Positions 7,435 to 49,087 of a stretch of DNA of 64,000 nt are shown here, piece by piece; within the stretch, counting starts at the first letter, position 1; the number at the start of each line of letters is the position of its first letter. The stretch comes from Bacillota bacterium. Its GTDB lineage: Bacteria > Bacillota > Limnochordia > Darwinibacteriales > Darwinibacteriaceae. The notes beneath the pieces were generated by a model. That model ran no database searches and was not told the DNA's origin. It was given only the letters and a program-made list of their open reading frames with translations. Both the position numbers and the translations under genes were made by a program. The stretch is taken from assembly GCA_012837385.1 (NCBI GenBank), contig DURH01000001.1, positions 1,349 through 65,348 of the forward strand, in the 5' to 3' direction.

Positions 7435-7510
7435 GAGCCATTAGCTCAGTCGGTAGAGCACCGGACTTTTAATCCGGGTGTCCCGCGTTCGAGTCGCGGA
7501 TGGCTCACCA
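7435..7510 (+). tRNA. tRNA-Lys (anticodon TTT)
   Basis: GAGCCATTAGCTCAGTCGGTAGAGCACCGGACTTTTAATCCGG...TTCGAGTCGCGGATGGCTCACCA. The acceptor GAGCCAT pairs with ATGGCTC, and the anticodon loop is CTTTTAA. Confidence 0.9.
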
Positions 7511-7531: not shown

Positions 7532-7617
7532 GCAGGCGTGGCGGAACTGGCAGACGCGCTAGACTTAGGATCTAGTGGGCAGACCCCGTGAGAGTTCGAC
7601 TCTCTCCGCCTGCACCA
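7532..7617 (+). tRNA. tRNA-Leu (anticodon TAG), long variable arm
   Basis: GCAGGCGTGGCGGAACTGGCAGACGCGCTAGACTTAGGATCTAGTGGGCAGACCCCGTGAGAGTTCGACTCTCTCCGCCTGCACCA. The anticodon loop is CTTAGGA. Confidence 0.9.
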
Positions 7618-21514: not shown

Positions 21515-21775
21515 CCTTTCTTTCTGGGAATATAAAAAACCTCAGTCCACATGGGACGAGGTTCTCGCGGTTCCACCCAAATTGATCGTAATCCGATCCA
21601 CTCATTACGCAGGTAACGGCTGCTCCGGCACGGCCTACTGTTAGTTCAGCCGGCAACTCCTAGGTGGTTTTCACCGCAGCATCTCTGGGGGAGCTCTCAG
21701 CATCCCGCTCCCTTCTCTGTCAGGTAAGCGTCGGCTACTCTTCCTAATCATCGTCTCTATCTATTGTTTCTAAGA
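21515..21775 (-). ncRNA. T-box riboswitch leader of thrS
   Basis: Minus strand 21583-21566 reads AATTTGGGTGGAACCGCG, matching the T-box consensus AATTAGGGTGGNACCGCG. It is followed by the terminator hairpin AACCTCGTCCCA-TGTG-GACTGAGGTT plus T6 at 21515-21560. A stem I region with GGGAGC...GCTCCC and a candidate specifier GAAA-ACC-A (Thr codon ACC) lie upstream. Confidence 0.75.
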
Positions 21776-45002: not shown

Positions 45003-45632
45003 ATGGACTTGGATGCTATGAGGGAATTGGCACACAAAGCCATGGTCAGACGCTGCACCCACCCAGATCGGGAACGGGGTTTTGTCTACTACCACGGCCA
45101 AAGGGTGGCTGAGATCGCCCTTCAGCTGCGTGAACTGATCTTTCCTGGGGAGGAAAGCTGGGACGAGGTGATCACAGCCGCGGGTTGGTTCCATGATGTG
45201 GGGAAGGGCATTGAACCGCACTGGGAGTATGGGGCCCTGTTGGTCAGGGAGATGCTCAAAGACCACTGCTCGCCCCAGGAATTGGAGCAGATTGCGGAGA
45301 TCGTGGGCAGCCATACCCTCCGCAAACAGAGGGAGTACCCCCCCTATGTGCAGCTGGTGCAGGATGCTGACATCCTGGACCATTTCGGCACCCTGGACAT
45401 TTGGTTGGACTTCTGGCACTGTGCCTGCCGGGGTAAAGGTCTGGAAGATGCGTTAGAGTTCTATGGAGACGAGTATCTGCAGAAGGTGGAGAGTGTGGCG
45501 AGCCTGCTCAACTTCCCGGAGTCAGTGGAGATTCTCCAGGAGAAAATGCTGTTTGCCCGAGAGTTCGCTGAGCGGTTTAGGCGCGAAGCCGCGGGAGAGC
45601 TGATCCTCAAAAGAAAAAAGGCCAAGGATTAA
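45003..45632 (+). CDS. HD-domain phosphohydrolase
   Basis: H...HD motif (GWFHDVGK) and a further His (GSHTL). Confidence 0.7.
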   Translation: MDLDAMRELAHKAMVRRCTHPDRERGFVYYHGQRVAEIALQLRELIFPGEESWDEVITAAGWFHDVGKGIEPHWEYGALLVREMLKDHCSPQELEQIAEIVGSHTLRKQREYPPYVQLVQDADILDHFGTLDIWLDFWHCACRGKGLEDALEFYGDEYLQKVESVASLLNFPESVEILQEKMLFAREFAERFRREAAGELILKRKKAKD

Positions 45633-45662
45633 CGTCCTTGGCCCTTTGAGAGGGAGGATAGG

Positions 45663-45926
45663 TCAGTAAGAACTGCTTTGCTCGTTATTGATGGTGATCT
45701 GCACCGTATCTGTTAGTACGTCAGCATAGGTATAAGAACGGCGGCGAACTGCATTTGTTTGGTCCAAATCTACTACAAACAATTTCGGGTATGTTTCTAC
45801 TAAGATTCCCTCAGATTCTAAGTAACGGCGGCGTCCCTTGTTAGCTCTGATGAAGACCTTCTTCCCTAGATTTGACTCTAGATGCTGTTTGATCTCTTCA
45901 ATTGTGGTCGGCTTTTCTACACCCAT
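45663..45926 (-). CDS. veg: Veg (biofilm-formation stimulator / DUF1021)
   Basis: 87 aa, collinear with B. subtilis Veg as I recall it (LESNLGKKVFIRANKGRRRYLESEGILVETYPKLFVVDLDQ...RSYTYADVLTDTVQITI). Confidence 0.8.
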   Translation of the reverse strand: MGVEKPTTIEEIKQHLESNLGKKVFIRANKGRRRYLESEGILVETYPKLFVVDLDQTNAVRRRSYTYADVLTDTVQITINNEQSSSY

Positions 45927-46005
45927 GGATCGTCAACCCCTTCCAGGATATTTTTGGGCACCAGCTTGCCAGTGGCGAGCAGCACAGGAACCGCAGTCAG
46001 CGGTC

Positions 46006-46165
46006 AAAAAAAGCGTATGAACGACCTTAAGTCGTCACACGCTTGGCGTACTCCTACGAGGTTAGCTGACGGGTTAGGACACCCAAGTTGCCCTTCCTTA
46101 GAACCAGGATTCACCCCACAAGATCGGGTCCCCCGCTGTCATAAAAATGATATTCGGAGAGTTCC
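46006..46165 (-). ncRNA. candidate c-di-AMP riboswitch (ydaO/kimA class) with a terminator expression platform, upstream of veg
   Basis: Minus-strand blocks in order: CTCTCCGAATATC ... GCGGGGGACCCGATC ... GGGGTGAATCC ... ACCCGTCAGCTAACCTCGTAGGAG. They resemble remembered ydaO-aptamer elements (CCGAAUCC / GGGGUUAAUC / ACCCGACAGCUAACUCCGGAGG). The terminator hairpin GCGTGTGACGAC-TTAAG-GTCGTTCATACGC plus T7 follows (46041-46006), then the veg RBS and ATG. Confidence 0.55.
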
Positions 46166-46281
46166 GCGTTTCGTATGAATCTGTTTTCATTACAAAACGG
46201 TGTGGATATAGTATAGCATAATACTTAGGAATATGTCAAGGGTAAAAGACTAGATCCCGTACAGGCTTGGGGGTAAGACTG

Positions 46282-47688
46282 ATGGATATATTAATCGTAG
46301 GAATGGGAAAGCTGGGCTACAAGCTCGCGGAGACTTTGGCGGGGCGGGAAAACAACATTACAGTGGTGGACGTCGACGAACAGGCTCTGCTCAGGGCAGC
46401 CAACCGCCTTGATGTGCTCACCATAACTGGAAACGGAGCTCAGCTGCGGCTCTTGGAGAGCTTGGACGTGAAGAAGAAGGATTTGGTGGTGGCGGTAACC
46501 AGCAGTGATGAGACCAATGTGCTGGTCTGCCTGATGGCCAAGAAGCTGGGCTGTCCCCGGGTGGCGGCGCGGGTGCGCAGCCCTGAGTATGCTGGGCAGA
46601 TGGAGTTCATCAAAACAGAGCTGGGGCTGGATTTTGTCACCAATCCAGAGCTCGACACTGCCAATGATGTGGCCCGCTACATTCTGCGGGGCTACAGCTC
46701 CCATGTGGAGTCCTTTGCCGAAGGCAAGGTGGGTCTTTTCGAAGTACCCGCCCACGCCCTGCCGGAAGTGGTGGGAAGGACGCTGGCCGAGGCAGGGGTT
46801 TTCGACGGAATGCTGGTTGGGGCGCTCTATCGCGATGGTGAAGTGATCATCCCTTCCGGCACCACTCGTGTTGAAGAAGAAGATATGCTGCACCTCATAG
46901 GACGCCGCGAGACGGTTACCGCCCTAATCAGGGCTCATTCCGCCTTGGGGCAGCGGCATGTGACCAAGCGGGTGATGATTCTGGGAGGAGGCAAAGCCGC
47001 CTTCTACCTGGCGGGTCGCCTCCTAACCAGTGGTCTGACAGTGAAAATTATCGAGCAGGATGAGGAACGCTGTGATTATCTGGCGGCCAACCTGCCAGGT
47101 GCCCTAATTATTTGGGGAGATGGCACAGATTTAGAGCTGTTGCAGGACGAGAACTTGGAGGAGATGGATGCGCTAGTCTCCTTTACAGGCCATGATGAAG
47201 AAAACCTGATGTTGGCACTCCTGGGCAAGCAGCATGGAGTGGCCAAGGTGGTGGCCAAGGTAAGCCGCTCCAACTTCGTGCCCATCATTGAGCAGCTGGG
47301 TATCGATCGAGCGGTCAATCCTGTGCTCATTTCCGCAGGTGAACTGGTGCGCTTCATCCAAGGCGGGCAGATCGCTTCATTATCGCTTATGTTTGGGGGA
47401 CAAGCTGAAGCGTTGGAAATACTGGTGCCTTCCGATGCGCCCATTATCGGCAGGAAGCTATCGGAAGCTCGGATTCCCCGGGGTGTGATCCTTGGCGCCA
47501 TTGTGCGGCAGGGCCAGGTGTTCATTCCTAAGGGCGATTCCACCATCCAGGCTCAGGATCGGGTGATTGCCTTCTGCCTGCACGCGGAGCTGCCAGCTTT
47601 GAACAGGCTCTTCTATCCGAAACGGAGGGGGATAGGGCATGAATTTTGGATTGGTCGCAAGGGTCCTCGGAAACCTTCTGCTGATTGA
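46282..47688 (+). CDS. trkA: Trk/Ktr-system K+ uptake protein TrkA (two tandem RCK_N-RCK_C units)
   Basis: Rossmann motifs IVGMGKLG and ILGGGKAAFYLAG, each followed by a C-terminal RCK_C. I chose ATG 46282 after GGGGGTAAG. The 3' end overlaps the trkH start by about 50 nt. Confidence 0.85.
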   Translation: MDILIVGMGKLGYKLAETLAGRENNITVVDVDEQALLRAANRLDVLTITGNGAQLRLLESLDVKKKDLVVAVTSSDETNVLVCLMAKKLGCPRVAARVRSPEYAGQMEFIKTELGLDFVTNPELDTANDVARYILRGYSSHVESFAEGKVGLFEVPAHALPEVVGRTLAEAGVFDGMLVGALYRDGEVIIPSGTTRVEEEDMLHLIGRRETVTALIRAHSALGQRHVTKRVMILGGGKAAFYLAGRLLTSGLTVKIIEQDEERCDYLAANLPGALIIWGDGTDLELLQDENLEEMDALVSFTGHDEENLMLALLGKQHGVAKVVAKVSRSNFVPIIEQLGIDRAVNPVLISAGELVRFIQGGQIASLSLMFGGQAEALEILVPSDAPIIGRKLSEARIPRGVILGAIVRQGQVFIPKGDSTIQAQDRVIAFCLHAELPALNRLFYPKRRGIGHEFWIGRKGPRKPSAD

Positions 47689-49087
47689 AGGTGCGATTTT
47701 GGCTGTTCCTCTCGGCGTCTCCCTGTCTTTTCGTGAGAGGAGCTCGGTCTTCGGTTTTCTGCTGTCCATGGGTATTCTGGGACTGATAGGACTGTTTCTC
47801 TCCAACATCCCAGTTAAGTCTTCCCGACTCAAAACCAGGGAAGCCATGGTGATTGTTACGGTGGGTTGGGTAGTTGCAGCTCTGTTCGCCGCCCTTCCCT
47901 TTGTGCTATCGGGGTCTGTATCCTCTTTTACTGACGCTTTTTTCGAAGCAGTATCGGGCTTGACCACAACGGGGGCTTCCGCCATCCGTAATGTAGAAGC
48001 TCTGCCTAAAGGAATTCTGTTCTGGCGCTCCCTCATGCACTGGGTGGGAGGGATGGGAATTCTTGTATTGACATTGGCAATTCTGCCCACCCTAGGATTA
48101 GTAGGGTCTCAAATGTTTAAGGCGGAAAGCCCAGGGCCATCACCAGACAGGTTTACACCCCGCATCGCGGCTACCAGCAAAATACTCTATGCCATTTACG
48201 GAGTACTGACTGCCATAATACTCTTTGCCGTACGGGCGTCAGGTGTATCCTGGTTTGAGAGCTTTATCCTAGCCTTCGGCACCGTGGGTACAGGCGGTTT
48301 TGGCCTGTACAATGACAGCCTCACCAGGCACAGCGTGAACAGTCCCCTGATCCTTGTTCTGGCTGCAGCCATGTTTCTGGCTGGTGTGAACTTCTCTTTG
48401 TACTATGATCTGATCAAGGGCCGCTGGAGACATGCCCTTGCCGATGTGGAACTGCGTCTGTACATCATCATAGCCGCGATATGTGTGTTAGGCATATCTT
48501 TAAACCTGTACGGCCGCACCTATGCCAGCTTCGGGGACACGGTGAAACATGCCCTGTTTCAAGTAGGATCGGTGATGACCACCACCGGTTACAGCACAAC
48601 GGATTTTGACCTGTGGCCCTCATTCAGTAAAGGCATCCTCTTTACCCTCATGTTTGTGGGGGCAAGTGCAGGCTCCACCTCTGGTTCGGTGAAGGTGGTG
48701 CGGCTGCTCATCGCCGCCAAGGTGGTGAAACGGGAGGTGGCCAAGGTTCTCCATCCTCAGGCGGCCCAACCGGTGGTTATCAACGGGAGGGTCATGCCTG
48801 AATCGGTGGTGCAGGGAGTTGTGGGCTTCTTGCTTCTCTATATCGGCGTTTTCGGCGTCGGTTCGCTCCTAATCAGCTTACAAGGCTTGGATATGATCAG
48901 CTCCATGAGTGCCGTGGCCTCCACCCTGGGCAATATCGGTGTTGGTTTTGGTTCTGTTGGGCCCAGTGGCAGTTACGCAGTGTTGAGCCCAGTAAGCAAA
49001 CTCCTCCTATCATTCTTCATGCTGCTCGGGCGCCTTGAACTGTTCACCATGCTCGCAGTGCTCAGCCCTGGATTCTGGAAGGAATGA
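47639..49087 (+). CDS. trkH: TrkH/KtrB-family K+ transporter
   Basis: Polytopic membrane protein with repeated M1-P-M2 pore-loop glycines (TTTGAS, GTVGTGGF, MTTTGYST, GASAGSTSGS). Confidence 0.85.
   Translation: MNFGLVARVLGNLLLIEGAILAVPLGVSLSFRERSSVFGFLLSMGILGLIGLFLSNIPVKSSRLKTREAMVIVTVGWVVAALFAALPFVLSGSVSSFTDAFFEAVSGLTTTGASAIRNVEALPKGILFWRSLMHWVGGMGILVLTLAILPTLGLVGSQMFKAESPGPSPDRFTPRIAATSKILYAIYGVLTAIILFAVRASGVSWFESFILAFGTVGTGGFGLYNDSLTRHSVNSPLILVLAAAMFLAGVNFSLYYDLIKGRWRHALADVELRLYIIIAAICVLGISLNLYGRTYASFGDTVKHALFQVGSVMTTTGYSTTDFDLWPSFSKGILFTLMFVGASAGSTSGSVKVVRLLIAAKVVKREVAKVLHPQAAQPVVINGRVMPESVVQGVVGFLLLYIGVFGVGSLLISLQGLDMISSMSAVASTLGNIGVGFGSVGPSGSYAVLSPVSKLLLSFFMLLGRLELFTMLAVLSPGFWKE

Follow-up and report, generated by a model that had tools for sequence, protein, structure and literature searches.

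A ydaO-class c-di-AMP riboswitch that likely controls veg by transcription termination in a clade of uncultured Bacillota

The veg gene in the 64,000-nucleotide stretch of Bacillota DNA analyzed here (the window) is preceded on its own strand by what is likely a functional, ordinary ydaO-class c-di-AMP riboswitch that controls veg by transcription termination. This reading is based on the membership of the aptamer in the covariance model of its class, its structure and conservation, the terminator that follows it, the lack of a second promoter before veg, and a linkage to veg that is independent of the neighboring gene trkA. The aptamer and its expression platform are ordinary members of the Rfam family RF00379, and it is the target, veg, that is probably the new and previously unreported element. 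The riboswitch lies in the 355-nt gap (45927-46281) between veg and the divergently transcribed trkA, and the features of this region are as follows.

45003-45632, plus strand: HD-domain gene (209 aa), the convergent neighbor of veg, followed by feoA-feoB
45616-45647, minus strand: terminator of the veg transcript (13-bp stem, then a T-run)
45663-45926, minus strand: veg coding sequence, 87 aa (PF06257 over residues 8-78, 95.2 bits against a gathering score of 25)
45937-45944, minus strand: ribosome-binding site of veg, GGAAGGGG, 10 nt before the ATG, read from the sequence
45989-46005, minus strand: small hairpin GACCGC-UGACU-GCGGUU, immediately 3' of the U-run of the terminator
46006-46044, minus strand: intrinsic terminator of the expression platform (15-bp stem with one bulge; U7 at 46012-46006)
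46035-46169, minus strand: c-di-AMP aptamer (ydaO/yuaA, RF00379), 135 nt, full length by covariance model
46042-46046, minus strand: 3' strand of the pseudoknot, CCAAG, in the aptamer tail; complementary to CUUGG in 24 loci
46083-46087, minus strand: 5' strand of the pseudoknot, CUUGG, a loop segment of the GGGC...GUCC hairpin; invariant in 24 loci
46159-46156 with 46054-46051, minus strand: aptamer helix P1, CUCC paired with GGAG in the mapped structure
46170-46196, minus strand: predicted 5' leader hairpin between the transcription start site and the aptamer, from minimum free energy (MFE) folds
46210-46239, minus strand: sigma-A-type promoter, TTGACA-18 nt-TGcTATACT (extended -10; 11 of 12 consensus matches plus the TG motif)
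46282-47688, plus strand: trkA, encoding a tandem-RCK protein (TrkA equivalog, 558 bits), the divergent neighbor
47639-49087, plus strand: trkH, after trkA

Identity and structure of the aptamer

A sequence-only reading of the window had recognized four sequence blocks on the minus strand of the gap and had assigned them to a ydaO-class c-di-AMP aptamer. All four blocks are present in the order given. The Rfam scan that it had proposed was run on both strands of the whole 64-kb window (cmscan, Rfam 15), and the assignment was borne out: the sole match to a riboswitch for c-di-AMP was RF00379 at 46169-46035 on the minus strand, with a score of 81.1 bits (E 2.7e-17; curated gathering score, 38 bits) over model positions 1-134 of 134. 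RF00379 was absent from the plus strand, and a permissive rescan of both strands of 45600-46320 gave no other credible Rfam family and again left the plus strand empty.

The window aptamer is identical to the consensus at 49 of the 56 highly conserved (upper-case) positions, and the conserved core nucleotides CCGAAU, GCGGGGGA, GGGGUGAAUCC and AACCCGUCAGCUAACCUCG are present. The seven non-identical positions are mostly paired positions or fall in the pseudoknot tail, and several of them are paired changes; one P1 pair is altered on both sides, from G-C to U-A. The nested consensus helices (the P1 closing helix, the long-range helix and the internal hairpins) can all form. When the Rfam structure, including the pseudoknot, was mapped onto 24 homologues (the window and 23 further loci), the 35 mapped pairs were paired in 95.9% of cases, compared with 42-50% when the partners were slid. 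The first hairpin of the aptamer contains a conserved A-C mismatch. In the 24-aptamer alignment 72 columns are invariant and compensatory changes occur at four pairs, all in one helix. The support from covariation thus comes mainly from one helix, because most aptamer columns are invariant within the clade; the invariance of most other pairs adds no covariation and indicates strong purifying selection.

The pseudoknot CUUGG:CCAAG replaces the Rfam consensus pairing of a CUCU loop with an AGAG tail, so that both sides differ from the consensus. Since both strands are invariant within the clade, the support for this pseudoknot consists in their complementarity. The terminator stem starts within CCAAG, and the final AAG of this strand supplies its first three bases. 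In this class the pseudoknot is the ligand-sensitive regulatory element, as seen by smFRET on "riboCdA" (PMC11963983). In both riboCdA and the window, the 3' tail of the pseudoknot touches the expression platform. However, the riboCdA tail contains the Shine-Dalgarno sequence and acts in translational control, whereas the window tail abuts the terminator, with the ribosome-binding site about 100 nt downstream; the window also differs in having CUUGG:CCAAG in place of the consensus CUCU:AGAG. Aptamers of this class take up two ligand molecules each, and the window aptamer is predicted to bind c-di-AMP.

Extra sequence of 30-70 nt, folding into one to three additional hairpins, interrupts the first aptamer hairpin in several related loci (L011 453-643, L013 2207-2397, L015 2203-2399 and L020 2214-2403; also L014 and L019). 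In these six loci the start of the Rfam match is shifted or the match is partial.

Leader, terminator and spacing to veg

From the position of the promoter, the transcription start site of the veg leader is predicted near 46203, which gives a leader of about 280 nt. A similar site (TTGACn-17/18-TGnTAtAcT-like) was found 5' of the aptamer in 23 of the 24 loci. The hairpin between the start site and the aptamer was predicted in the window and most relatives, with a stem that is subclade-specific (for example, UUGGCAUGUG...CGUGCUAA in L011-L020).

The terminator hairpin, AAGCGUGUGACGAC...GUCGUUCAUACGCUU followed by U7, folds at -19.0 kcal/mol, and the 81-nt segment that contains it has a z-score of -4.45 relative to shuffled sequences. 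A simple terminator scan missed this hairpin because of its one-base bulge. A terminator of -15 to -25 kcal/mol with a U5-U7 run follows straight after the invariant tail CCAAGCG in all 24 loci; the stems consist of several sequences that are unrelated between subclades, with the pairing kept. The sequence-only reading had likewise placed a terminator with U7 directly after the aptamer, which is correct, and had put the veg ATG 80 nt further on; the distance from the end of the U-run to the ATG is 79 nt. The ribosome-binding element CTGGAAGGGGTTGA is kept in the relatives. The small hairpin next to the U-run is conserved in position and varies in sequence, reading CCCGGGA...UCCCG in another subclade (L011-L024).

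No promoter-like site was found between the terminator and veg in any of the 17 loci in which the riboswitch directly precedes veg, as it does in the window. On sequence grounds, transcription of veg would therefore depend on read-through of the terminator. The proposal that the element is aimed at veg and not at trkA-trkH is upheld by these data, in that promoter, aptamer, terminator, ribosome-binding site and veg make up a single unit that lacks an internal promoter, and this unit is kept in 23 further genomes.

Genomic setting and conservation of the riboswitch-veg unit

The identities of the flanking genes as first read (veg, trkA and trkH) were confirmed as PF06257 Veg, a tandem-RCK TrkA and TrkH. 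The window Veg scored 101 bits against NCBIfam NF046033 (BflmStimVeg, "biofilm formation stimulator Veg"), below the equivalog cutoff of 135. It is by sequence a member of the Veg family, and a score below the cutoff does not establish functional equivalence to B. subtilis Veg. The protein of PDB entry 3fb9 is a homologue of it. A 27-aa match inside a 430-aa ORF was considered as a second veg copy in the window and rejected as a chance match.

Homologues of the window Veg were found in metagenome-assembled genomes (MAGs) of uncultured Bacillota or "Limnochordia", many of them from anaerobic digesters; the named relatives are Candidatus Darwinibacter acetoxidans and a Candidatus Fermentithermobacillaceae bacterium. 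All riboswitch-bearing genomes compared are uncultured MAGs. The digester contigs ENA ERZ2647901 NODE_2 and JGI 3300053716 are examples of further sequences with an identical locus. A first sample with one genome per GTDB species yielded 36 veg loci, one of which was cut at the veg start and left out of the riboswitch test, and a second sample yielded 9 further veg loci with Veg 48-66% identical to that of the window. Each of the 22 testable GTDB species genomes with a Veg at least 74% identical has RF00379 upstream of veg and in the same orientation. The first-sample loci without it were 4 loci at 51-61% Veg identity and 9 Bacillaceae loci. In the second sample only one locus of the nine, that which shares the veg-HD-feoAB neighborhood, carried the riboswitch (83.9 bits; Veg 64% identical), and the eight others, in a ksgA / RNaseH-like or YabG / veg / SipL context, did not. 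The question raised in the sequence-only reading, whether veg orthologs in related genomes have the same leader, is thus answered with yes for the 22 close relatives and for one at 64%. RF00379 scores in the 23 further loci were 60-94 bits. The promoter-aptamer-terminator-veg unit therefore occurs in every testable relative in which veg stands beside the HD gene and feoAB (Veg 64-89% identical), and none of the 21 veg loci with a different setting has the riboswitch.

The gene order of the window's clade is trkA or a penicillin-binding protein (PBP) gene (divergent), veg, the HD gene (convergent) and feoAB, which differs from the canonical ksgA-yabG-veg neighborhood. The HD gene was convergent to veg in 23 of the 24 riboswitch loci, L012 giving no match. 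In other uncultured Bacillota (L038-L045) veg follows ksgA and a gene of the RNaseH-like (PF04308) or YabG peptidase type, precedes the genes of a PG_binding/GH18 protein and SipL, and has no riboswitch. The canonical Bacillota veg locus (Pveg) shares with the window a PF06257 product and a strong sigma-A promoter; on the other hand, it has a short leader without a riboswitch in the ksgA / RNaseH-like or YabG / veg / SipL context, whereas the window has a 280-nt riboswitch leader beside the HD gene and feoAB. Judging from these gene orders, veg has been relocated in the window's clade. Because only veg-HD-feoAB loci carry the riboswitch, it tracks the clade in which veg moved to the new position. 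Among the genomes sampled, the riboswitch-veg association is so far confined to this one clade of uncultured Bacillota from anaerobic digesters.

The HD gene was also considered as a PgpH-like c-di-AMP phosphodiesterase; it gave generic HD hydrolase matches only, and this assignment was rejected. Elsewhere in the window, the Rfam scan found a full-length T-box leader (RF00230) at 21549-21760 on the minus strand (122 bits, E 1.5e-26) and three tRNA genes, at 7435-7507 and 7532-7614 on the plus strand and at 2322-2394 on the minus strand.

In seven relatives (L006, L007, L008, L012, L016, L018 and L022) the riboswitch and veg are separated by one small orphan ORF or by two. In four of them a zinc-ribbon ORF (ZnR) of about 55 aa with a CxxC...CxxC pattern is followed by an orphan ORF of about 105 aa (orfX), and the other three have orfX alone; in all seven, veg begins 22-30 nt downstream of orfX. 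In L006 the intervening ORFs are at 1971-2138 and 2153-2479. The orfX product matched no Pfam or NCBIfam family, and among 5.8 billion proteins no more than 15 are close homologues. AlphaFold models it as a 7-strand beta-sandwich of a generic kind (pLDDT 81.6), with weak CnaB/pilin-like matches. An A at alignment column 100 of the aptamer is shared by the seven loci and suggests that they form one subclade, although L005 also has this A. The riboswitch always lies on the same strand as veg or the ZnR-orfX-veg operon, at a fixed short distance from the first ORF, and from these arrangements veg is the constant member of the regulon across both architectures.

Divergent trkA-trkH is the upstream neighbor in 17 of the 23 loci with a visible upstream gene, the contig of the remaining locus being too short. 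In the other six of the 23, the riboswitch and veg are kept and trkA is replaced by a class-B PBP gene (three confirmed directly), an alpha-amylase gene or a response regulator gene. The TrkA proteins of the compared genomes are 67-83% identical. No RF00379 copy facing trkA was found in the surveyed loci. Since the riboswitch-veg unit persists without trkA and no aptamer faces trkA, the element belongs to veg, and a "node" with TrkA would amount to no more than an adjacency that recurs often. The c-di-AMP node that had been suggested for riboswitch and TrkA in this intergenic region thus finds no support as a requirement, and the idea can be dispensed with. On the plus strand, TTTTCA-17-TATAGT (46184-46212) resembles a promoter and has bases in common with the -10 of veg, and just 43 nt or so separate the -35 box of veg from the ATG of trkA (46282). 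The divergent promoters of trkA and veg therefore probably overlap and may compete.

Mode of control and its possible meaning

In the proposed mechanism, the strong sigma-A promoter (46239-46210) would start the leader transcript, the aptamer would fold and bind c-di-AMP, and the intrinsic terminator right after the pseudoknot tail would end transcripts at 46006, short of veg. By analogy with studied members of the class, the polarity would be OFF: a high level of c-di-AMP would cause termination and silence veg, and a low level would permit read-through and veg expression.

The c-di-AMP riboswitch of B. thuringiensis kdpFABC is a proven transcriptional OFF switch: termination is favored once c-di-AMP is bound, and transcription reads through when c-di-AMP is low under K+ limitation (PMC6488665). 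It resembles the window in its RF00379 aptamer, sigma-A promoter, immediate terminator and untranslated spacer (PMC6488665), and differs in the length of the spacer (143 nt in kdp, 79 nt in the window) and in its target, which is a K+ pump in the one case and veg in the other; the window system is known from its sequence. We commit to a transcriptional OFF switch because this layout matches that of kdp and natural class members are described as OFF. The B. subtilis ydaO (kimA) and yuaA (ktrAB) leaders, the founding members of RF00379, have the same aptamer class as the window, with K+ transporters as targets. These leaders bind c-di-AMP with picomolar affinity, and transcription is switched off (PMC7266159; PMC11963983). 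In the window, by comparison, the K+ genes trkAH adjoin on the other strand and have no aptamer before them.

A conserved antiterminator, as an OFF design needs, was not found: the MFE folds retained the terminator in every sequence, and three candidate pairings failed. About 10 of the 24 truncated-transcript folds showed a "P0" antiterminator, in which the 5' flank of the aptamer pairs with the 5' strand of the terminator, and this candidate was rejected; the duplex energies were -5.6 kcal/mol for cognate and -5.56 kcal/mol for non-cognate partners, with shuffled flanks close at -4.9 kcal/mol. A second candidate, the mini-hairpin UACGC-CAA-GCGUG, would mask the terminator base; it was rejected because it cannot form with the ACUCC tail of L001-L005 and is weak in the AAGCGC-terminator subclade. 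The pairing of CGUCA in the aptamer core with UGACG in the terminator was also rejected; it is absent with AAGCGC-type terminators and uncompensated where the core varies (L001, L022 and L037).

The AAG common to the pseudoknot tail and the terminator stem leaves room for an ON design, in which the ligand-stabilized pseudoknot would hold AAG, weaken termination and let veg be expressed in the presence of c-di-AMP. The three-nucleotide overlap of CCAAG with the invariant terminator base AAGCG occurs in all 24 loci, the failure to find an antiterminator speaks for such a design as well, and it would fit the view of veg elsewhere as an abundant housekeeping transcript (PMC5670726; PMC10117727). 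We nevertheless consider an ON switch unlikely, since the hairpin without these three pairs is still G+C-rich and would retain about -12 kcal/mol by a rough estimate beside the U-run, so that the effect would be small, and natural class members are described as OFF (PMC6488665; PMC11963983).

The remaining explanations set aside the control of veg or the function of the element. The very strong promoter, the efficient-looking terminator and the extra hairpins at conserved positions flanking the aptamer would suit a leader that acts mainly as a short, abundant terminated RNA in its own right, for instance by buffering c-di-AMP or by acting in trans, with veg transcribed independently. This is very improbable given the lack of a promoter-like site before veg in 17 of 17 loci and the constant, same-strand company of veg or ZnR-orfX-veg at a fixed short distance. 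It is highly improbable that the element functions with trkAH as a local c-di-AMP node, for instance by influencing the overlapping trkA promoter, with veg as a passenger: the closeness of the trkA ATG to the veg promoter, the overlapping plus-strand site, the adjacency in 17 of 23 loci and the standing of K+ uptake genes as classic c-di-AMP targets (PMC7266159) are in its favor, but the aptamer occurs on one strand only and its transcription runs away from trkA, an additional RF00379 copy directed at trkA is lacking, and the six genomes that keep riboswitch and veg with no trkA nearby largely refute it. That the aptamer is a decaying or non-functional relic is extremely improbable when 72 of its columns are invariant though the Veg and TrkA proteins have diverged to 64-89% and 67-83% identity, and when full-length, high-scoring matches recur in the 23 further loci. 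Transcriptional OFF control of veg by c-di-AMP is accordingly the reading adopted here.

A c-di-AMP riboswitch paired with veg was found nowhere in the searchable literature, the gene lists of Nelson 2013 and Block 2010 being outside that search; ydaO, veg and riboswitch were mentioned together there only in unrelated contexts. These two are reportedly the primary gene lists of riboswitch associations, and an earlier mention in a supplementary table is therefore possible. The usual RF00379 regulon comprises K+, osmolyte and amino acid transporters, cell-wall remodeling genes and osmotic-stress genes (PMC7266159); veg falls outside these classes, which are typical and not defining.

The very strong "constitutive" promoter of the veg gene has made it familiar since the 1980s. 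The gene is elsewhere regarded as constitutive (PMC8307031; PMC10117727), and the riboswitch-veg unit, which would tie veg to c-di-AMP signaling, suggests that it is not constitutive everywhere. Lei 2013, as cited in PMC8307031, linked veg to biofilm genes, whose expression is impaired in a veg mutant; Veg is toxic without CspB and CspD (PMC8307031), and the C. difficile Veg homologue co-sediments with 30S subunits and mRNA (PMC10117727). When c-di-AMP accumulates in B. subtilis, biofilms fail to form, owing to a block that acts upstream of SinR activity by an unexplained step (PMC4879592). As to what c-di-AMP control of veg would mean physiologically, we tentatively suggest that Veg may be a direct c-di-AMP output, whose level the messenger would set so that RNA metabolism, translation or the control of biofilms is linked to K+/osmotic status, and that Veg or its partners might be the missing step from c-di-AMP to SinR in B. 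subtilis. Veg is in this sense a candidate for the unexplained effect on SinR (PMC4879592), and because an OFF riboswitch on veg matches the polarity of the biofilm block, a c-di-AMP-Veg connection is worth testing in a tractable organism. The regulons of c-di-AMP riboswitches have been used to place uncharacterized genes in osmotic, K+ and cell-wall physiology (PMC7266159), and the conserved riboswitch-veg unit therefore offers the testable hypothesis that Veg acts in c-di-AMP-controlled physiology.
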